Assembly (NCBI GenBank): GCA_035698285.1
Contig: DASSBY010000018.1
Location: 1-34,472 of the forward strand
DNA: 34,472 nt
Direction of reading: 5' to 3'
Source of the DNA: Fimbriimonadales bacterium
GTDB taxonomy: Bacteria > Armatimonadota > Fimbriimonadia > Fimbriimonadales > ATM1
Shown: positions 1,403 to 33,057 of the stretch, one piece after another
Position numbering within the stretch: position 1 is the first letter of the stretch
How the letters are laid out: the number at the start of each line of letters is the position of its first letter
Made by a program: the position numbers and the translations under genes
The notes under the pieces: model-generated
Told to the model about the DNA's origin: nothing
Database searches by the model: none
Seen by the model: only the letters and a program-made list of their open reading frames with translations

Positions 1403-1612
1403 CTACTTGTTCGGACCTTTGGCTCCACCTTTGATGATGAACTCATCGGGGATCGGTGGCGCCACGGCAGAGCCGGGACGCGGCGGGGGCGTCTTATCGA
1501 GGCCGGTATCGGTCGAAGCACCCATCTTCATCCAGAGCAGAATGACGATTCCCACGGCAATCGCCACAATGCCCCATATGACAACCGGGGACTGCTTTAC
1601 CTTAGATCCCAC
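1403..1612 (-). CDS. Small hypothetical membrane protein (69 aa)
   Basis: There is one clear TM helix (VVIWGIVAIAVGIVILLW) followed by a Pro-rich tail. The start overlaps the end of the upstream gene by 16 nt. I recognise no family. Confidence 0.45.
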   Translation of the reverse strand: MGSKVKQSPVVIWGIVAIAVGIVILLWMKMGASTDTGLDKTPPPRPGSAVAPPIPDEFIIKGGAKGPNK

Positions 1613-2508
1613 AAGTATTGATCTCCGTCGTAAGCCAGGCCCTGAAAGTTCCGGCGAACGTCACAGCCGGCGCTGATGTTGCCGATGCGCATGGTTTTGG
1701 TATGCCCATCCACAAAGGCGATGTTGACCTGCTTCGAATGATACGGATACAAGCCGCCCCATTCGAGCCAATAGTTGGAATCGTTCGGATTGCATCCCAC
1801 GCACCAGCCAACGCCGTACGTCTGCCACCTGCCATTATTGCCATTGCCGGTGTAGTCGGATATCGGCTCCATGAACTGCTGGTTTTCGTCCCGGACGCAT
1901 GGCGCTTCGATAACCCAGTTCCCGCCGCCGGTGGGATCTCCATTCGGTTTACGCAGCCACATGCTGTCGCCGAACAGAATCGTTGCGCCCGGTTGCGCGA
2001 TTCTGCCTGCGTTGATGGGCGCCGAACCAACATAAGTCCCGCCCGGGTCTTGACGCGTTATCCACGGACTTAGGAAGTCGTAGTTGTAGCCGAGATCGGT
2101 GCGCGAGAGCCAATAGTAGTAGAAGCTCGGGTCGCTCTTGTCTGCCGGCCGGTCGTTCGGATCCATCGACAAACCTTGGTCTGTCGCGTTGGGGTCCGCC
2201 GGGCATCGGAAAACGTAGTAACTCTGAACGTAGGAGTAAATGAGTTCGCCCCAAACGTAGTCGGGCCGTCCAAAGCCCCATCCGGGACCATTGATACTGC
2301 CTTGATTGGCGTGGGGAAGGCCATCATCGTGGTCTCCCATGTACATCATCATGGACTTGGTGACCTGGTTGAAGTTGGCCAAACAGCTGATTTTCTTTGC
2401 AGCCTGCTTGGCGGCTGCGAACACGGGGAATAGTATTGCCGCAAGAATGGCAATGATTGCTATGACAACTAGCAATTCGATTAGCGTGAAAGCCTTTCGA
2501 TTGCGCAT
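1597..2508 (-). CDS. Prepilin-type N-terminal cleavage/methylation domain protein, H-X9-DG (DUF1559-like) family
   Basis: MRNRKAFTLIELLVVIAIIAILAAILFPVF is a canonical prepilin-like N-terminus. YHSKQVNIAFVDGHTKT fits H-X9-DG. AAGGAGG lies 7 nt upstream of the ATG. Confidence 0.88.
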   Translation of the reverse strand: MRNRKAFTLIELLVVIAIIAILAAILFPVFAAAKQAAKKISCLANFNQVTKSMMMYMGDHDDGLPHANQGSINGPGWGFGRPDYVWGELIYSYVQSYYVFRCPADPNATDQGLSMDPNDRPADKSDPSFYYYWLSRTDLGYNYDFLSPWITRQDPGGTYVGSAPINAGRIAQPGATILFGDSMWLRKPNGDPTGGGNWVIEAPCVRDENQQFMEPISDYTGNGNNGRWQTYGVGWCVGCNPNDSNYWLEWGGLYPYHSKQVNIAFVDGHTKTMRIGNISAGCDVRRNFQGLAYDGDQYLWDLR

Positions 2509-2607
2509 GAGCGTGCCTCCTTGATTTTACGAATGGCTATCGCCCTGCAGCGACAGCATGAAGGAGATTATAACGCCGTTTTCAGCAAAAGCAATCCCTA
2601 TCGGGAA

Positions 2608-2811
2608 CTATTCGCCGCTTCTTTGACGGTATTTTTTGGCCTGATCGGGGTCGACCTTGCGCATTCGGCGCAATAATTCGTTGTCCCCGCCCGGCTTTGG
2701 GACCTGCCGCTTGGCTGGCCCCTCCTCGTCGCCCGGCTTGCGCTCAGGCGTCGGAAGGTCACGCTCGCGGCGTTCGATCGATGCGATCCCATGTTCGTTT
2801 ATGTACTTCAT
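2608..2811 (-). CDS. Pup-like small protein modifier, UBact-type (67 aa, C-terminal ...YRQRSGE)
   Basis: The protein is short, charged and looks disordered. Its tail ELLRRMRKVDPDQAKKYRQRSGE-stop matches my memory of the UBact C-terminal consensus (R-[TS]-G-[EQ] terminus). Its ATG overlaps the upstream msrA TGA stop as ATGA. Confidence 0.65.
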   Translation of the reverse strand: MKYINEHGIASIERRERDLPTPERKPGDEEGPAKRQVPKPGGDNELLRRMRKVDPDQAKKYRQRSGE

Positions 2812-3422
2812 CGTATTCTGCAGGCGCCGCCGGCGTGCTTACCGTAATATTGCTGGTGATAGTCCTCGGCCATCCAGAAGGTACCTGCTTTGGTGACTCG
2901 CGTACCGACAGCCGTCCCTCCGGCCCCGATCGTATCTATTTTGTGCTTGGCCAAAGCTGACTGCTCATCGGAAAAAGTGAAGATCTCGCTTCGGTACTGC
3001 TCACCGGGAGAGCACTGCCGACTCGGGTTATGGATTTCAAAGAAAACGTTCAACAGCTTTTCGTACGTCACTTTCGAAGGATCGTACTCGACGAGAACCG
3101 ACTCGGCATGCCCCGTCCGTCCGGAACACACTTGCTCATAAGTCGGCGAAGCCGTAACGCCGCCCGTATAGCCGACTGCCGTCGCAACAACGCCTGGGAC
3201 TTGGCGGAACTCCGCCTCGATTCCCCAAAATCACCCTGCTGCAAACAAAGCAAGCGCGTGCCCGTCGGCCAGAGCCTTAGCATCGCTATCGAGCCTCGTC
3301 GTGACTCCGCCGGGGTGGGTACCGACGCCGCTCGTGTCCGTCCCGCTGCCCATGTTTTGTATCCCTAGACCGGCGACCGCTGAGGCTGCAAGACCCATCG
3401 TTATCCAGTTCATCGTTCTCAT
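2808..3422 (-). CDS. msrA: Peptide-methionine (S)-S-oxide reductase MsrA with in-frame TGA (3231-3233) at the catalytic Cys position; candidate selenoprotein with an N-terminal signal-like segment
   Basis: ORFs 3231-3422 and 2808-3131 are in the same frame. Read-through gives ...HALALFAAG-[TGA]-FWGIEAEFRQVPGVVATAVGYTGGVTASPTYEQVCSGRTGHAESV...EDYHQQY. The paralogue at 4187-4657 has [10 protein letters not shown] at the same place. AGGA lies 9 nt upstream of the ATG at 3422. Confidence 0.7.
3195..3227 (-). promoter_or_regulatory. Candidate bacterial SECIS hairpin downstream of the msrA UGA
   Basis: The mRNA reads UGA-UUU-UGGGGAAUCGAGGCGGAGUUCCGCCAAGUCCCA. The lower stem is UGGG/CCCA. The upper stem is GGCGG/CCGCC with apical loop AGUU, which starts 19 nt after the UGA. 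Confidence 0.5.
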
Positions 3423-3543
3423 CAGTACTTATCCTAATGCCCGCTGCAAGTATACAGTTCCCTTCGGGCCCAAAGTCCTGCCGAATCCGTTCGCTGAGCC
3501 TCGATTTCGAAGCAATCGGGCAAACTGAGGCGTAGAGTTCGGT

Positions 3544-3560
3544 GGACGTTAGAAACGTCC
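3544..3560. promoter_or_regulatory. Perfect 7-3-7 inverted repeat GGACGTT-aga-AACGTCC in the divergent msrA / Met-rich gene intergenic region (operator or leader hairpin candidate)
   Basis: The repeat is read directly from the sequence and is extendable to 9 bp with one G-U pair. It lies about 50 nt upstream of the ATG at 3609 and is followed by the tandem ACAAGC-ACAAGC-ACAAGG (3577-3594) that runs into the SD. Confidence 0.4.
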
Positions 3561-3608
3561 GCGGCAGACAAAGTCAACAAGCACAAGCACAAGGAGATCG
3601 ACAACATT

Positions 3609-4142
3609 ATGAAAACGCTAGCGATCGCGGCCGTTTTGGCCGCCGTAGTTGCCGCCCAAGCTCAGCCCCAAGTGGACATGAAACCGCCTCCCGAAATGCA
3701 GAAGGTGGCATGGATGGTGGGCGAGTGGAAGGGCAATATGAAAATGCACATGCCCGGCATGGATCAGCCGATGGACAGTGCGAGCACCATCTCGGCGAGA
3801 ATGGGCGTCGGAGGCCGCTATTTGGTCGTCAATTTCATGTCGGCCATGGGCGACATGGGCGCCACGGAGCACATGGAGCTCATTACCTACGACCCAGCCC
3901 AGAAGAAGTGGGTCTGCTGGGGCTTTGACTCCGTCGCCCCAGGGACGATGGAATCTTCCGGCGACCTCATGGGCAACAAAATGGTGGTGACGAGCAAACC
4001 GATGACGATGCCCGGCGGTCCCCCGGATACGTTCCGAACGACCGTGACCAAGAAATCGGACACCGAGTTTGATTTCCTGCTCGAGCACAAAGTGAACGAC
4101 GCTTGGACGAGCATGATCGAGGGCACGTTCACTAAGTCGTAG
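3609..4142 (+). CDS. Secreted DUF1579-like protein, unusually methionine-rich
   Basis: The signal peptide is [19 protein letters not shown]. The core WMVGEWKG...GGRYLV...[17 protein letters not shown] resembles the DUF1579 family. I count 20 Met in 177 residues. AAGGAG sits upstream of the ATG. Confidence 0.75.
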
Positions 4143-4149
4143 CCTTAAC

Positions 4150-4171
4150 GGTGCGGCCGCGATGCCGCACC
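4150..4171 (+). other. Perfect 8-bp hairpin (GGTGCGGC-cgcgat-GCCGCACC) between the Met-rich gene and the second msrA
   Basis: The hairpin is read directly from the sequence and has no following T-tract. It could be an mRNA processing or stability element, or a weak attenuator. It covers the GTG at 4151, which argues for the ATG at 4187 as the msrA start. Confidence 0.4.
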
Positions 4172-4186
4172 AACGTAATACTAACT

Positions 4187-4657
4187 ATGGAAATCGCAAC
4201 TTTCGCAGCAGGATGTTTCTGGGGTGTAGAAGACCTCTTCCGCCAAATAGAGGGCGTGACCGAGGCAATTAGCGGATACACGGGGGGAACGCTTGTCGAT
4301 CCGACGTACCAGGACGTATGTTCCGGAACCACCGGCCACGCAGAAGCCGTGCAGATAAACTTCGACCCTGCTGTCATTCCCTACGAAAGCCTGCTCCAAG
4401 TTTTTTGGGAGACCCATGATCCGACCACGCTTAATCGCCCAGGGCCGGACGTGGGACGTCAGTACCGGTCCGCCATTTTCTATCATTCCGAGGAGCAAAG
4501 AGAGGCTGCCACGGCTTCCCTCCTTGCAAGGCAGCAATGCCTCGATCGGCCGATCGTTACGGAAATAGCCCCCGCAACGCCCTTCTTCCCGGCCGAGGAA
4601 TACCATCAGCAGTACCTGATGAAACACGGCCTTTCCTCCTGCCATATTCGGCAATAA
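4187..4657 (+). CDS. msrA: Peptide-methionine (S)-S-oxide reductase MsrA (Cys form, no signal peptide)
   Basis: [24 protein letters not shown]...GYTGG...[19 protein letters not shown]...QYRSAIFY...EEYHQQYL is canonical MsrA. I chose the ATG at 4187 rather than the GTG at 4151. Confidence 0.92.
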
Positions 4658-4705
4658 GTCCCTGACTGAAACTGTATCGAACGAAATTGGCGTAGTCACG
4701 CCATA

Positions 4706-6637
4706 GTGCGTTTAGCGGTTCCGTTTTTTTGCCTTCTCATTGCCTCCTCCCAAGCACAGGACAACACCATCCAGGGCTTTAAAATGGAAAAGCCGCCTAC
4801 CATCGATGGTGCCATCGATCCGACAGAATGGCAAGATGTCCCTTCCGGCTCAGGCCAGTTCGATGAACACACTGGGCAGAAGGCAGCGGATGGCCTGCAG
4901 TTTTGGCTTGCATACGACGCCGAATTCATATATTTTGCCGCCAAGGCGCACGACTCCGATCCGGGATCGATCCGCGCCACCGAGTACCAAACTAACGTCA
5001 GCCTCGAAGGCGACGACTCCGTAACGCTGCTCCTCGACGAGACGGGCACGCTCGGTGAGTTCAGCGAGTTCGGGATGAATCCGAGGGGCGCCACGTCGGT
5101 AAGCCTCGCAGGAGGCCGAGCGGCAAAACGCGAGTGGTGCGGCGAATTCGTGGCAAAGGGCAGGGTCACCGCCGAAGGCTGGGAAATCGAAGCCCGAATT
5201 CCTTGGAGACTCGTGCGTATTCCCGCCGCAGGCGCTCGCAACTTACGCTTCCAGGTTGGGCGCGTTATCCAACGTCTAAGACGGTCTTTCGTATGGAGGT
5301 ACACCAACGACGGCCATCCCGAGAACGCCGGCGTTTGGAAAGGCGTCACGCTTCCGGAGCCGTACCTCGACCGGTCGATCAAGCTGCTCCCCTACGTCTA
5401 CGCCGGGGCCGATGAGAACGGCCATATTGCCGATGCCGGCCTCGACTTCAAAACCAACTTGAACAATCAAATAACGGGCGTGGGTTCTATCAATCCGGAC
5501 TTCCGGAATATAGAAAACGCCCTCCTGTCGCTGGATTTCAGCCGGTTCGAACGGCTCGCAGACGAAACGCGCCCATTCTTCCAAGAAGGCGCCGACTATA
5601 CGCAGACGATTCTCTTCGCTAGCCAAAGAATTCGAGGTTTCGACGTCGGCATCAACACGTACGGCCGCATTTCGGACAAAGTTCGGTTCGGCGTTCTAAA
5701 CACTCTCGATTTCGGAAACCAGAACTCCTTCGCCTCGAATTTCCAATACGACATCACGCCCAACGACGGCATCGGCGTCGCCGCCACCAGCCTATCGCGC
5801 CCGGGATTCGACAACACCGCCGCGCTCGTACGATTTTACAAAGGCATCGGACCGCTAGAGTTTTTTGGCCGAACCGCCATCACTGAAGACACCGAGACCG
5901 GCAATGGCACGGGCGGCGATATCAACGTAAACTATTCGAAAGCCGGCTTCAACTACTTTGGATCGTATCAAGCATTCTCGCCCGGCTTCAATCCCCGACT
6001 CGGCTTTTTTCCCGAAGTGGATTATCGCGGCTTTCAAACCGGCGTAGAGTGGAACAAGCCGATGTCTTCAGGCCCCCTTCGACAGTTCGACTTCGCACTC
6101 TACCGCACTGATTTCCAGCGTTTTCACGGCGGGCATTACCGAGACACCTGGGAAGGGGCTGCGCACACCCGGCTCGCAAACGGAATCGGCTTGCACTATG
6201 CTGCCGTTCGCGATAATTTCCTCGGCTCGGATGATGCTCTCGACAGCGCCAGCATCGTCTTCCCGGACGGCAGCCCATACCGCAATTTCGGCTTCGGCTA
6301 CACCTGGGGCCACGTGGAAGGTTCTAACTACGCCGGCTTCTCCATGGCCAGCGCATACCGGCCGATACCGCTACTCCAACTAACCGCAAGCTACGAGCAC
6401 GTCCGTCACAACGGCGAAGAGGATCAAGGAATATTGGGCTTGAATTACGACTTCGGCGGCAACCGCTACCTGAGCGGCCGCGCGGTAAAGCACAACGACA
6501 AATGGAACATGTATATCGCTCTCCGAAAGACCGGCAATCGGGGCGCCGAATACTTCCTAATCCTCGGCGATCCGAATTCCGAGACTTTTCGAACGAGCTT
6601 GATCCTAAAATCCACGATCCCGGTGGAAATTCACTGA
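4706..6637 (+). CDS. Secreted CBM9-like / DUF5916-type protein (probable beta-barrel)
   Basis: The signal peptide is MRLAVPFFCLLIASSQAQ. The N-terminal part PPTIDGAIDPTEWQDV...FWLAYDAEFIYFAAKAHDSDP...GDDSVTLLLD...GWEIEARIPW matches the CBM9-like module that precedes DUF5916 barrels. The start codon is GTG. Confidence 0.6.
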   Translation: MRLAVPFFCLLIASSQAQDNTIQGFKMEKPPTIDGAIDPTEWQDVPSGSGQFDEHTGQKAADGLQFWLAYDAEFIYFAAKAHDSDPGSIRATEYQTNVSLEGDDSVTLLLDETGTLGEFSEFGMNPRGATSVSLAGGRAAKREWCGEFVAKGRVTAEGWEIEARIPWRLVRIPAAGARNLRFQVGRVIQRLRRSFVWRYTNDGHPENAGVWKGVTLPEPYLDRSIKLLPYVYAGADENGHIADAGLDFKTNLNNQITGVGSINPDFRNIENALLSLDFSRFERLADETRPFFQEGADYTQTILFASQRIRGFDVGINTYGRISDKVRFGVLNTLDFGNQNSFASNFQYDITPNDGIGVAATSLSRPGFDNTAALVRFYKGIGPLEFFGRTAITEDTETGNGTGGDINVNYSKAGFNYFGSYQAFSPGFNPRLGFFPEVDYRGFQTGVEWNKPMSSGPLRQFDFALYRTDFQRFHGGHYRDTWEGAAHTRLANGIGLHYAAVRDNFLGSDDALDSASIVFPDGSPYRNFGFGYTWGHVEGSNYAGFSMASAYRPIPLLQLTASYEHVRHNGEEDQGILGLNYDFGGNRYLSGRAVKHNDKWNMYIALRKTGNRGAEYFLILGDPNSETFRTSLILKSTIPVEIH

Positions 6638-9025: not shown

Positions 9026-10243
9026 TCAAGGCGCCGGGACGTACAGTACGCGCACCCAAAAAAGCTCATCCGTGATTTTTGGACCGTAGGCAACGGGCCG
9101 TGGATAAGAATTCTGGTTCTGGTGGCATTCCAAGTCGTTCTGATAATGAATGGAAGCTGTTAGCTTCGTGCCTTTCGGCAAAACCGGGGGCTGGCTAAAC
9201 ATATAGCTGCCAATGTAAGTCACGTTCCACGGATAAACCCTCAGGATCGTTTTTGCCGGATCAGTCGGCGGTGTCGCCGTAAGCCTAACTTCGACAGTAT
9301 AGTCGCGCGCCTCTGGAATGACGCCAACCACTTGAATTCCCTGCGAAAGCGTCTCTTCGTCCGAAAAGTTTGGCGTCTCCAAAATGGGAACCTTGATATC
9401 TCGAGTTCCGAGATTCATCTGCCTTACTTCTCGATAAGCTCCCGACGCGAAGGTGAGCCCGAGGTCGAAGTTTCCGTCAGCAGCGGTCCCATTGGGGCGA
9501 TACTGCACTTGCACCAGCAGGTTATCGCCCGGTTTCAGGGTCTTGCCAACGCCGTCCGGCAGGCGCCATGGCCCATTCCCGATTGTCCATACGCCGATAT
9601 ACTCCTCCGTCTGGGCTTCGAAGCTGGCGGCCGTCTCGTAGCCTGGCTCGGGCGTTTTCACGTCTTCTGCGCGCCCCTTCCCCGCCGTATCGATACCGAT
9701 GGTAACGCTTCGTATCACCGAAGGATTTGCGGGCGCAACGCTAAATCCGATCAATCCCCGCTTCTTAGTGATATCCGCAGGGATAACGAACGTTTGCCAA
9801 TATGTCGGTCCTTCCGCTCGCACGGTTACGCCCTTCTGCGACAGCACTATGGAAGCCTTTGGTGGCGGAGCAAATTCGGGACTCGGCGGCATGTCGCTGG
9901 CGTTGCCCTTTGCCATTCCCGCGCGGATCCATTCCTGGATTAGAACCGCTTCATCGTCGGTAAGCGGCGATGCGGGAGTCACCCTGCCATAGTCCGATGT
10001 CGCCTTATAAGGAGGCATGGATCGATCCAAAACTACAGACTTAATCGTCTCGGCCCGTCGGCGTACATCGTCATACGTCGTTAGCGAGAACGGCGCGGCG
10101 CCGTCCGGACGGTGGCATGGCGTACACTTGGCAAAAAACACGTGGGCTAGATCGCGCGTGTAGGTCACGTCGGCACTCTTTGAAAAGCCGAGCGCGGACA
10201 CAATAATGGCAGCAAACCACGCCGGGCCCAAGAGCGATCTCAC
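9026..10243 (-). CDS. Secreted c-type heme-binding (CXXCH) protein with a large beta-rich C-terminal domain (possibly PHM/DBH-like fold)
   Basis: There is a signal peptide, then FAKCTPCHRPDGAAPFSLTTYDDV...RSMPP. I recall this heme-c module preceding copper-monooxygenase-like domains in Acidobacteria and PVC proteins. The usual His clusters are not evident here. The start codon is GTG. Confidence 0.55.
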   Translation of the reverse strand: MRSLLGPAWFAAIIVSALGFSKSADVTYTRDLAHVFFAKCTPCHRPDGAAPFSLTTYDDVRRRAETIKSVVLDRSMPPYKATSDYGRVTPASPLTDDEAVLIQEWIRAGMAKGNASDMPPSPEFAPPPKASIVLSQKGVTVRAEGPTYWQTFVIPADITKKRGLIGFSVAPANPSVIRSVTIGIDTAGKGRAEDVKTPEPGYETAASFEAQTEEYIGVWTIGNGPWRLPDGVGKTLKPGDNLLVQVQYRPNGTAADGNFDLGLTFASGAYREVRQMNLGTRDIKVPILETPNFSDEETLSQGIQVVGVIPEARDYTVEVRLTATPPTDPAKTILRVYPWNVTYIGSYMFSQPPVLPKGTKLTASIHYQNDLECHQNQNSYPRPVAYGPKITDELFWVRVLYVPAP

Positions 10244-15150: not shown

Positions 15151-15984
15151 ATGTCCAGCGCACCCCTTCTAATCGTCGACGGCGATAACCTCGCCCATCG
15201 CGCCTACCATTCGACGCCGAAGACCGTCCTCGGCGCCGACGGCAAAGTCATCAATGCCGTCGTCGGTTTTTTCGGAATGCTCCTAAATCTTTGGACGCAG
15301 GAGTCACCGAGGCAATGCTTCGTCGCCTGGGATACGCTTGGAACCGACACCTACCGTAATCGGCTGTGGCCGGCATACCAAACGGGCCGCGTTTTCGAGC
15401 CCGACATTGTGCGCCAACTCGACCTTTTGCCCGAAATCTGCCGAGCTTTCGCATTCGGCGTTGCCAAGCAAGCCGGCTGCGAAGCCGACGACCTTATGGC
15501 CTCCGCGGCTAAGGCCGAAGTGCGCCAAGGCGGAGCCGCCCTCCTCTATACAACGGACCGCGACGCTTATCAATTGGTGAATGAACAAATAACGGTTCTC
15601 TCTCCTCGGCGCGGCTCGCCGGTGCCCGACCGCATCGGTCCGCGAGAAGTGGTGGAGCGTTTCGGCGTTTTGCCGCAGCAAGTTTGCGATTTCAAGGCGC
15701 TGAGCGGCGATGCCTCCGACAAAATCCCAGGCGTCCGGGGCATCGGCCCGAAATCCGCGGCAGCCCTTCTCCTCAAACATGGCAGCCTCGATGCTATCCT
15801 TCCGACTCTCCAACGCCCTGAAGACGCAAAAGCCGCCATGCTGTTTCGTGAAGTGGTTTGCATGCAAGACGAGATAAAAGTTGCCCTACCTTCAAGCGCG
15901 CCCGAATGGAAGCGCGGAGCTGAGGTCCTCCGCGCCCTGGGAGCAGAGCGCTCCGCCGAGAGGGCAGCCGAGTTTGCCGCATGA
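15151..15984 (+). CDS. Stand-alone 5'-3' exonuclease (FEN / Pol I N-terminal-like, PIN + H3TH)
   Basis: LLIVDGDNLAHRAYH, EADDLMAS, TTDRDAYQLV and SDKIPGVRGIGPKSAAALL are characteristic 5'-3' exonuclease motifs. I chose the ATG at 15151. Confidence 0.85.
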   Translation: MSSAPLLIVDGDNLAHRAYHSTPKTVLGADGKVINAVVGFFGMLLNLWTQESPRQCFVAWDTLGTDTYRNRLWPAYQTGRVFEPDIVRQLDLLPEICRAFAFGVAKQAGCEADDLMASAAKAEVRQGGAALLYTTDRDAYQLVNEQITVLSPRRGSPVPDRIGPREVVERFGVLPQQVCDFKALSGDASDKIPGVRGIGPKSAAALLLKHGSLDAILPTLQRPEDAKAAMLFREVVCMQDEIKVALPSSAPEWKRGAEVLRALGAERSAERAAEFAA

Positions 15985-16436
15985 CCTTCTCATCGATTCT
16001 CGAGTCCCTGCCCGTACCCGCGCAAGCTGCATCTGACAAGGATCAGGAGATTCGCGCTCGCGCTGTTCTTGCACTTCTGATCGAGGCGGCAAACCAATCG
16101 GACGCGGTAGGTCCGATTGCAAGTACCGCCGACAAGTGTCCCAATTGCGGAAAAGCCGCACCCTCCGCACGATCGCCGTATTGCTCGGACGATTGTCGCT
16201 GCGAAGCGGCATTCGTTCGCCAACTCCGAGCGGCTATTGCCAATGGAAACATCGTAGACCGGGAACGCCAGGTTTTCCTGGGACAAGCTTTTTGGTTCGT
16301 GCTCGGCGGAGGCCGGCCTCTGAGGCAAAGTATCGCGCCGCAGTCTGCCCTGAAACAGGTTTTCAAAAGAACGCACGGCAAATGCGAAATCTGCGGAGCC
16401 CCCGCGACGACCGTGGACCATACCGGCAGTGGGTGA
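15981..16436 (+). CDS. Zn-ribbon / HNH-like nuclease, ORF ends at an in-frame TGA inside the HNH motif (same frame continues to 16646)
   Basis: The ATG overlaps the exonuclease stop as ATGA. The ORF ends ...HGKCEICGAPATTVDHTGSG-[TGA]. The same frame then reads NRPINLRAVCASCS..., which together forms a CxxC...DH...NL...CxxC HNH-like signature. Confidence 0.55.
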   Translation: MTFSSILESLPVPAQAASDKDQEIRARAVLALLIEAANQSDAVGPIASTADKCPNCGKAAPSARSPYCSDDCRCEAAFVRQLRAAIANGNIVDRERQVFLGQAFWFVLGGGRPLRQSIAPQSALKQVFKRTHGKCEICGAPATTVDHTGSG

Positions 16437-32265: not shown

Positions 32266-33057
32266 ATGCTTAAGACCAACCGTGCCGCCTTTACTCTTAT
32301 CGAGTTACTGGTCGTAGTAGCGATCATCGCCATCCTCGCAGCTATCCTATTTCCCGTTTTCAACTCCGCCAAGGAAGCGGCCAAGCGAACCACCTGCTCG
32401 ACCCATATGCGCCAGCTCGCCACGGGCGTCACGCTCTACACAGACGACGCGGACGGCTGCCTCCCGATGGGGACCAATTACGGCGTCCCGAGCGGCGACA
32501 TCTATCGAATTTGGACGGCCCAAGTGTTTCCCTATGTGAAGGGCAAGCAGGTTTTCGTCTGCCCTGGAAGCGAGGGCAAATTCGGCGATACGTGGGCGAC
32601 GCGCGGCGAGATGAACATCGGCTACACGGGCGTGACGGCCTATGATCCGGAAGGCTGCATCGAGGGCGAAGGCGACAGCGCCGGCTGCGAGGGCTTCACG
32701 ACCATCGCAAACGCGAACAAGATGGAGGAGCCTTCGCGCACCGCCCTCTTCGCCGAAACGCCAGGCGGCGATTTGGCCCTGAAGTACCGCGGCTATACCT
32801 TCAGCCCTTACAACGGAATCGTGCATCCGTCAGAGTCTCGGCTAAGCCCGCCCATCACCTCCGACCGCGACGTCATCCCCGAGATGCAGTACCTCGAGCC
32901 CTCCCAGCTAAAACCCATCTGGTGCCGTCACAACCGAACCGGTAGAAACACTGGCACGTCGAGCATCATTTTCGCCGACCTCCACGCGAAACCACACTCC
33001 GCGAACTCCATCCTCGCGATGGACCGAGGCGCCAACATCATCTGGCGCTTTCGGTAA
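32266..33057 (+). CDS. Prepilin-type N-terminal cleavage/methylation domain protein (DUF1559-like, degenerate H-X9-DG)
   Basis: The N-terminus is MLKTNRAAFTLIELLVVVAIIAILAAILFPVF. The C-terminal part IIFADLHAKPHS has DL where the family has DG. Confidence 0.85.
   Translation: MLKTNRAAFTLIELLVVVAIIAILAAILFPVFNSAKEAAKRTTCSTHMRQLATGVTLYTDDADGCLPMGTNYGVPSGDIYRIWTAQVFPYVKGKQVFVCPGSEGKFGDTWATRGEMNIGYTGVTAYDPEGCIEGEGDSAGCEGFTTIANANKMEEPSRTALFAETPGGDLALKYRGYTFSPYNGIVHPSESRLSPPITSDRDVIPEMQYLEPSQLKPIWCRHNRTGRNTGTSSIIFADLHAKPHSANSILAMDRGANIIWRFR

Follow-up and report, generated by a model that had tools for sequence, protein, structure and literature searches.

A divergent gene cluster on contig DASSBY010000018.1 of a Fimbriimonadales bacterium (phylum Armatimonadota, assembly GCA_035698285.1) encodes a very probably exported methionine sulfoxide reductase MsrA with a putative catalytic selenocysteine (Sec), an exported methionine (Met)-rich DUF1579 protein, a second MsrA of the cysteine (Cys) type and the Pup-like protein modifier UBact. 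The analysis covered the whole 34-kb stretch (34,472 nucleotides, nt), further called the window, and the evidence tipped somewhat in favor of a clade-specific cluster of the Fimbriimonadales for handling Met oxidation in the cell envelope. The genes were identified by listing of open reading frames (ORFs), translation and profile searches, which recovered every part of the five-part module named in the original prediction (a UBact-like tag, a Sec-type msrA, a shared control region, an exported Met-rich protein and a Cys-type msrA) at the predicted positions. The parts are arranged in the window as follows (aa, amino acids; SECIS, selenocysteine insertion sequence):

2808–3422, minus strand: msrA, putative 204-aa selenoprotein MsrA with a signal-like N-terminus (PMSR, E 2.7e-50, translated through TGA)
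3231–3233, minus strand: UGA at the catalytic position, codon 64, most probably read as Sec (TGA conserved in orthologues)
3197–3224, minus strand: SECIS-like hairpin, 7–34 nt 3' of the UGA (folding and comparison with relatives)
3423–3608, no strand: divergent intergenic region of 186 nt between the two arms (alignment of four orthologous regions)
3609–4142, plus strand: Met-rich DUF1579 protein, 177 aa, signal-like N-terminus (PF07617, E 6e-16)
4187–4657, plus strand: Cys-type msrA, 156 aa, with GCFWG and a C-terminal Cys in SSCHIRQ (PMSR, E 7.5e-63; TIGR00401, 203 bits)
2608–2811, minus strand: UBact gene, 67 aa, Pup-like protein modifier with the C-terminus DPDQAKKYRQRSGE (PF20513, E 1.8e-18; NF033388, 66.5 bits)

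The product of the minus-strand msrA matched PF01625 with 171 bits (cutoff 23.7) and TIGR00401 with 162.5 bits (cutoff 108.1), both scores being obtained with U replaced by C in the query. Its single in-frame TGA (3233–3231) was located at the Cys of the GCFWG motif, the frame reading FAAG*FWGIE, and the resulting GUFWG active site matched the motif described for Sec-MsrA, which is listed among the prokaryotic selenoprotein families with the motif GUFWG/H (PMC13188914). The C-terminal Cys of the protein (GGACRIR) was aligned with the recycling Cys198 of the E. coli MsrA (profile alignment to 1ff3, with the Cys of GGACRIR / GFCKI placed on the Cys of GYCGI). The TGA together with 110 nt of its flanks was identical in eight independently assembled contigs from the JGI and Logan metagenome assemblies, which means that it is not an assembly error. 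It was also found at the same codon in three related loci, namely L011 (which, together with L016, comes from the Fimbriimonadales metagenome-assembled genome TH_ant_mag_80, GCA_051003155.1), L015 (Armatimonadetes MGR_bin364) and L047 (a metagenome contig). The proteins from L011 and L015 were 61–64% identical to the window Sec-MsrA and the conservation extended to both sides of the TGA, with VGT.PGGV.TRLD and ALFAAG among the conserved stretches upstream of it. A scan of metagenomes with the pattern FAAG-TGA-FWG brought up 63 loci (numbered L023–L085), including 40 distinct sequences representing msrA genes with the frames open on either side of the TGA, while all 117 nearest database homologues had a Cys at the catalytic position. 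The L011 contig carried selA (PF03841) 6 kb from the locus, and in the gene list of the collection the L011 msrA is given as one 174-aa product reading through the TGA.

Two side observations concerned the sequence of these enzymes. In the Sec-MsrA clade formed by the window protein (residues 131–140), L011, L015 and L047, a loop was shortened to HNPxRQC, compared to HDPTxxNRQGxDxG in the ordinary MsrAs, and contained an additional Cys. This Cys might act as a second residue resolving the selenenylsulfide. Among the metagenomic Sec-msrA genes (L023–L085) were some for a longer form of MsrA, DSRFG / DARFG ... YHQKY, which had roughly 60 additional aa at its C-terminus.

The SECIS-like hairpin of the window consisted of a lower stem GGA/UCC, an upper stem GGCGG/CCGCC (3216–3203) and an apical loop AGUU, whose GU was located 21–22 nt after the UGA. 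Its upper stem and loop were identical in L011, L015, L047, L045, L046, L051 and L071. Hairpins with GU in the loop were located 10–40 nt downstream of the UGA in the metagenomic Sec-msrA genes. Those of the remaining classes differed in sequence from the window hairpin, but had GU in the apical loop as well and a similar distance from the UGA, as follows:

GACUCCCG-GUU-CGGGAGUC
CCGUC-AGUUA-GACGG
GCCGUCUAC-CGUGCU-GUAGACGGC

One stem position of the last class was G:C, A:U or C:G (L042/L076, L060/L061, L054), which represents a compensatory change; the hairpins were compared class by class in descriptive terms. A single SECIS structure did not fit all 40 Sec-msrA sequences, since the register of the stem differed among the classes. 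No SECIS or other family of Rfam was matched in the region 2500–4800. A Cys-type exported msrA in L020 (approximately 6190–6240, P0126) kept a small UCGG-AGUU-CCGA hairpin at the SECIS position of the Sec class, either as a possible remnant of a switch from Sec to Cys or by coincidence.

A true stop at the TGA would make the msrA a pseudogene or leave it divided between a 63-aa peptide and a 107-aa fragment with no catalytic activity. This is how automatic gene callers divide the gene (63 aa + 107 aa), and the evidence for recoding was incomplete in several respects: the 34-kb window had no Sec machinery of its own (the profile search of its ORFs found no selA, selB or selD), the hairpin was not significant for the window sequence alone, as 15% of its synonymous recodings folded as stably, and the comparison of the minimum folding energies (MFE) between the Sec and Cys genes was marginal (P = 0.053, 40 vs 6 sequences). 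The tRNA-Sec was not found in the contigs of L003, L011, L015 or L016 either. Nevertheless, a true stop is very improbable, given that the TGA fell exactly on the catalytic codon, that it was kept both in the orthologues of 61–64% identity and in about 40 distant homologues, that both flanking frames were intact and free of further stops, that the hairpins 3' of the TGA had compensatory changes and that in L011 selA stood beside a locus called as a single read-through product. The msrA with the TGA is thus, with high probability, a real selenoprotein gene decoded with Sec, as had been proposed for it originally. Genes of this kind are routinely broken into two ORFs by gene callers. The approximately 40 distinct sequences from one pattern scan show that selenoprotein MsrAs of the exported type occur commonly among environmental bacteria.

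The original prediction also assigned the Sec-MsrA to the exported proteins, and this turned out to be very probable. The window protein had a 57-aa N-terminal extension with a hydrophobic stretch ahead of the PMSR domain. Its N-terminus, MRTMN-WITMGLAASAVAGLGI-QNMGSG, included a basic n-region, a 16-residue Ala/Gly-rich h-region and several AxA/GxG cleavage candidates, the signal-like part extending from residue 1 to approximately 21 and being followed by a GTHPGGV linker. The orthologues from L011, L015 and L047 had a different yet equally signal-like N-terminus (MIKTILFTSLPVVAALAVAGW). In a profile search with three Sec-MsrAs, the nearest relatives were Cys-type MsrAs of 205–235 aa with N-terminal extensions. 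Among the 117 nearest full-length homologues having the active-site motif, 104 had an N-terminal extension that was at least 35 aa long and included a hydrophobic run, 64 had a lipobox-like motif (e.g., LLAAC, LVGC) and 78 had the GTxPG linker also found in the window protein. Most of the 40 metagenomic Sec-msrA products likewise had signal-peptide or lipobox N-termini. The window enzyme thus belongs to a subfamily of signal-peptide and lipoprotein MsrAs, and its predicted export is well supported by homology.

An exported MsrA depends on an electron donor, and the absence of a thioredoxin or DsbD gene in the window had been noted as a puzzle. The absence itself was confirmed: neither thioredoxin, DsbD nor CcdA was found among the window ORFs, a search of the window for CxxC- or Sec-containing thioredoxin-like ORFs was negative and no YedY or YedZ was found in it. 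It was, however, hardly a puzzle, since most of the other exported MsrA loci examined were also without an adjacent donor. The only window ORFs with a CxxC near the N-terminus were a 405-aa ORF at 9026–10243 on the minus strand, which had no Pfam match, a CTPC motif at residue 40 and a position adjoining CtaA (COX15), and a small ORF at 15981–16436.

Several known enzymes resemble the window Sec-MsrA in part. With the large Cys-type subfamily of signal-peptide and lipoprotein MsrAs it shared the export signal, the GTxPG linker and the C-terminal recycling Cys. The Sec-MsrA of Clostridium sp. OhILAs / Alkaliphilus oremlandii is reportedly cytoplasmic and reduced by a selenoprotein glutaredoxin. 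It is the characterized GUFWG-type enzyme (Kim et al. 2009, cited in PMC13188914), and the likeness to it included the PF01625 domain, the Sec-for-Cys replacement in G[C/U]FWG and a UGA followed by a hairpin within the coding region. The window enzyme differed from it in having a signal peptide, in belonging to the exported/lipoprotein subfamily and in its Armatimonadota host; it also kept the C-terminal recycling Cys and had the extra Cys in the shortened HNPxRQC loop. Exported MsrA and MsrAB of diderms, such as the periplasmic MsrAB of Haemophilus influenzae (PMC9404787), have in common with it the export signal, the MsrA domain and the recycling Cys, but the window protein has Sec in place of their Cys and no fused MsrB or thioredoxin domain.

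The protein encoded on the opposite arm matched the DUF1579 domain over its full length (PF07617, 59.1 bits against a gathering cutoff of 25.2, residues 27–176 of 177). It contained 20 Met in 177 aa, i.e., 11.3% compared to 2.4% for a set of 11 other window genes, and was the sole Met outlier among 35 window ORFs, the others having at most 4.5%; the binomial probability of the Met bias in the mature protein was approximately 9e-9. The claim of an exported Met-rich protein was thus borne out by its composition and its signal-like N-terminus, and both properties were typical of the family. An exhaustive HMMER search gave 721 cluster representatives at E ≤1e-3 (clusters at 50% identity), the Met content of 140 representatives of typical length had a median of 8.2% and reached 15.6%, and a signal-like N-terminus was present in 128 of the 133 aligned members. 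DUF1579 is, in other words, a widespread secreted and compositionally Met-rich family. The conserved columns in the alignment of 133 members were occupied by the scaffold residues G, W, Y, D, F and R, while no column had more than 61% Met and 23 columns had 20–60% Met. With no fixed Met columns, the Met richness is compositional rather than positional, a property more in keeping with a bulk chemical role than with a defined metal site. Cu(I) binding was considered as a function but not favored, since no Met column was conserved.

The structural evidence for DUF1579 was limited to prediction. A single-sequence AlphaFold model was all-beta and of low confidence (pLDDT 56, pTM 0.53), and its best Foldseek matches were calycin-type barrels, i.e., OssO/OlmO, nitrobindin, Rv0813 and lipocalins, with TM scores of 0.5–0.6. 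The protein may tentatively be regarded as a calycin-type beta-barrel. A sequence search of the PDB found no solved DUF1579 structure and returned only spurious Kelch matches, no mention of DUF1579 was found in the literature searched, a tblastn search against plasmids gave no match and a protein word-index search retrieved only a 99% identical sequence. The scan of contigs with the DUF1579 alignment gave two loci only, the peptide patterns used being very narrow. Proteins with more than one DUF1579-like unit were also found, namely tandem pairs of 339–344 aa and a protein of 4599 aa in which 17 stretches were matched (P0244, P0243, P0248).

The Sec-MsrA and the DUF1579 protein both had signal-like N-termini and were encoded by divergent genes 186 nt apart. 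The Cys-type msrA started 44 nt past the DUF1579 stop, with an alternative GTG start at 4151, and had no N-terminal extension, as expected of a cytoplasmic enzyme. The gene identities, the conservation of the UGA, the export signals, the Met bias and the limits of the synteny are results of the analysis; actual Sec insertion, a sink or substrate relation between the two exported proteins, a joint regulation of the two arms and any role of UBact are inferred. The minus-strand operon would produce an MsrA with a catalytic Sec, translocated through the general secretory pathway, with the hairpin directly 3' of its UGA aiding the recoding. Once in the periplasm, the enzyme would attack Met-S-sulfoxide in envelope proteins with its selenol, which would thereby become a selenenic acid. 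The C-terminal Cys, corresponding to Cys198 of E. coli, would resolve this acid into a selenenylsulfide, to be reduced by a thiol-disulfide oxidoreductase of the periplasm whose gene is located elsewhere in the genome. The plus-strand operon would produce the exported DUF1579 beta-barrel, most likely serving as a sacrificial oxidant sink and/or as a preferred substrate recycled by the Sec-MsrA, while the Cys-MsrA would serve the cytoplasm. UBact, presumably co-transcribed with the Sec-msrA and translationally coupled to it, would be present probably incidentally. If this scheme is correct, it would give the first testable function for DUF1579, that of a sink for oxidants in the periplasm, with MsrA in place of MsrP as the recycling enzyme.

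A comparable arrangement has been published, and the earlier statement that such a combination was not described as a system holds only in part. In Azospira suillum, MrpX is an exported protein with 20% Met which is rapidly oxidized by HOCl and regenerated by the periplasmic YedY/MsrP (PMC4436054). The likeness of the window to the MrpX–YedY1 (MsrP) pair consisted in the gene of an exported Met-rich protein placed beside the gene of an exported Met-sulfoxide reductase, in the proposed sequence of periplasmic sacrificial Met oxidation and enzymatic recycling, and in the presence of a second reductase paralogue. The differences were as follows: the reductase of Azospira is a molybdoenzyme exported by the twin-arginine translocation (Tat) pathway with the membrane donor YedZ/MsrQ, in contrast to a thiol/selenol MsrA in the window; MrpX is a small, highly charged peptide, and the window protein a 177-aa, presumably folded DUF1579 beta-barrel with 11% Met; and the SigF/NrsF pair of the MrpX–MsrP system had no counterpart adjacent to the window genes. 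With a reductase and a sink of other families, the cluster is analogous to MrpX–MsrP but not a member of that system. The Sec-MsrA family is also a listed one (PMC13188914). Each part of the cluster comes from a known family; their combination is a clade-specific variant.

The gene order was compared in the related loci. In L015, the five parts were complete and arranged as in the window with respect to both order and orientation; L047 had the Sec-msrA, DUF1579 and Cys-msrA genes and the first four codons of UBact at the contig end; L011 had DUF1579, Sec-msrA and UBact, its contig ending before the position of the Cys-msrA. Orthologues of the Cys-msrA were present at the same position in L015 and L047. 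The identity of DUF1579 to that of the window was only about 50% in the relatives, and the outer flanks differed: in the window, a DUF5916 gene was inserted between the Cys-msrA and Bax1-I, which L015 lacked at this position, and past the pilin-like gene the window had GreA and AlaRS, compared to an S9 peptidase, a MetH-like gene and SelA in L011. The block therefore has some cohesion. The claim of a conserved gene order was sustained for the three relatives L011, L015 and L047, and the refuting condition named in the original prediction, a gene order found in no relative, did not apply. The conservation was confined to one small Fimbriimonadales clade and included unrelated neighbors, so that it resembles local synteny no less than a module under selection.

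Several results weigh against the interpretation of the cluster as a dedicated Met-oxidation unit. The arrangement was seen in only four close lineages, including the window, and the conserved block also contained a pilin-like DUF1559 gene and a small membrane protein gene (L011, L015) and Bax1-I (L015), so that the synteny alone does not prove a functional relation. None of about 40 other Sec-msrA loci had UBact, DUF1579 or a second msrA, and their neighbors were heterogeneous (a membrane thioredoxin-like protein in L033/L035, MsrB in L041/L080, elsewhere DUF2891, DUF1425, NnrU and others); three Cys-type exported homologues, one of them from Fimbriimonadaceae, were also stand-alone genes lacking UBact, DUF1579 and a second msrA; and five other UBact loci did not have this gene order. 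The Cys-MsrA sharing the operon with DUF1579, being cytoplasmic, could not act on the exported protein. Finally, the low-confidence DUF1579 model resembled ligand-binding calycins, which is compatible with a ligand- or metal-binding role as well.

Taken together, such data could be explained by mere inherited local synteny of two msrA paralogues, a calycin-like DUF1579 protein of unrelated function and an orphan UBact, with no dedicated system; in that case the DUF1579 protein would be a binder of a hydrophobic ligand, haem or Cu(I) via Met side chains. This explanation agrees with the restriction of the order to four close relatives and the unrelated genes within the block, with the stand-alone position and heterogeneous surroundings of other exported MsrAs of either type, with the fluid position of UBact within the order and with the Foldseek matches to nitrobindin, Rv0813 and lipocalins. 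It leaves aside the fact that three of the five genes are concerned with Met or its oxidation, that an 11%-Met protein flanked by two msrA genes is unlikely to occur by chance, that the block survived the divergence of DUF1579 to about 50% identity despite rearranged outer flanks and that the Met residues of the family had no conserved positions, contrary to expectation for a defined metal site. The inherited synteny was for these reasons regarded as rather doubtful, and the clade-specific envelope cluster was retained as the somewhat better supported interpretation.

The membership of UBact in a Met-oxidation unit, as suggested originally, was not supported. The protein itself was canonical, with scores of 66.4–66.5 bits against the cutoffs of 27.8 (PF20513) and 35 (NF033388) and the C-terminus KKYRQRSGE, in agreement with the pattern R-[ST]-G-[EQ]; the terminal DPDQAKKYRQRSG[EQ] was invariant in eight UBacts from all contexts, and the relatives of UBact were named as Fimbriimonadales or Armatimonadota. 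The stop of the Sec-msrA and the start of UBact overlapped as ATGA (2808–2811) in the window and were separated by a 1-nt gap in L011, L015 and L047, with no terminator-like site between the two genes, which points to co-transcription and probably to translational coupling. However, UBact followed the Sec-msrA only in the window clade. In L012–L014 it was located beside Pup_ligase, with or without Proteasome (in L012 and L013 no proteasome gene was adjacent), and in L086–L090 orphan UBacts with 78–89% identity to that of the window were found beside Sua5-DnaE. At least three contexts of UBact thus exist within the Fimbriimonadales, where the gene is often separated from those of the ligase and the proteasome, and this fluid position makes its link to Met repair weak; the probability of a functional link appears to be low.

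Pup-like tagging loci with the order Pup ligase – UBact – proteasome in Armatimonadota, Nitrospirota and the PVC bacteria (Planctomycetes, Verrucomicrobia, Chlamydiae) were reportedly described by Lehmann et al. in 2017. The window gene shared with them the canonical UBact protein and its C-terminus, but stood apart from any ligase or proteasome gene and overlapped the stop of a selenoprotein msrA. The overlap invites the idea of a repair-or-degrade operon, in which UBact is deliberately co-expressed with the Met-sulfoxide reductases and proteins are, under oxidative stress, either repaired or tagged by a PafA-like ligase for the proteasome; in a variant of this idea, the translation of UBact, being coupled to a UGA-containing gene, might depend on the selenium status. 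The actinobacterial Pup–proteasome system aids resistance to nitrosative and oxidative stress, and the intact UBact with its invariant C-terminus, together with the tight junction lacking a terminator-like site, would suit such an operon. It is nevertheless unlikely: the upstream MsrA is exported, in contrast to the cytoplasmic pupylation-type tagging, the UBacts of 78–89% identity beside Sua5-DnaE or Pup ligase had no msrA nearby, and neither Mpa, PafA, Pup ligase nor proteasome genes were found among the window ORFs. A more far-reaching version, considered quite unlikely, would have UBact wired to the Sec-msrA in such a way that the tag synthesis tracks both oxidative stress and Sec decoding ("repair outside, tag and degrade inside") and senses selenium, with the Met-rich DUF1579 proteins acting as a widespread and so far unrecognized class of periplasmic sacrificial antioxidants. 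Most likely, UBact is an orphan gene that landed at this position and is at most co-regulated with the oxidative stress response; its adjacency to the Sec-msrA is a curiosity, which would matter only in the case of such co-regulation.

The divergent intergenic region offered little information on the control of the two arms. A scan of it found no sigma-70 consensus promoter. The sequence GGGAAC-N17-CATTAG was present at 3462–3434 on the minus strand, only about 11 nt upstream of the ATG of the Sec-msrA. This was its single copy in the window (0.11 expected), and L011 (746–772) and L015 (2403–2429) had it at the corresponding position. It might, speculatively, be a promoter of the extracytoplasmic function (ECF) sigma type giving a nearly leaderless mRNA; the alignment of the four orthologous regions contained little else that was conserved and was too weak to call a promoter. 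A perfect palindrome, GGACGT-TAGAA-ACGTCC (3544–3560), was located upstream of DUF1579 and was not conserved in L011, L015 and L047.

Directly beyond UBact, the window contained the following gene:

1597–2508, minus strand: prepilin-type DUF1559 gene, 99 nt downstream of UBact (N_methyl and SBP_bac_10 matches; synteny)

This gene was syntenic in L011 and L015, where it was followed, as in the window (1403–1612, minus strand), by a gene of a conserved small membrane protein, and it is probably not a functional part of the cluster. The remaining window genes were of the housekeeping and envelope types and included GreA, GyrA, CtaA, Bax1-I, a 5'-3' exonuclease, NUDIX, an ECF sigma factor and several DUF1559 pilin-like proteins, with tRNA-Pro as the sole tRNA. 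The prepilin-type DUF1559 paralogues (N_methyl / H-X9-DG-like) numbered three in the 34 kb, at 148–858, 1597–2508 and 32266–33057.

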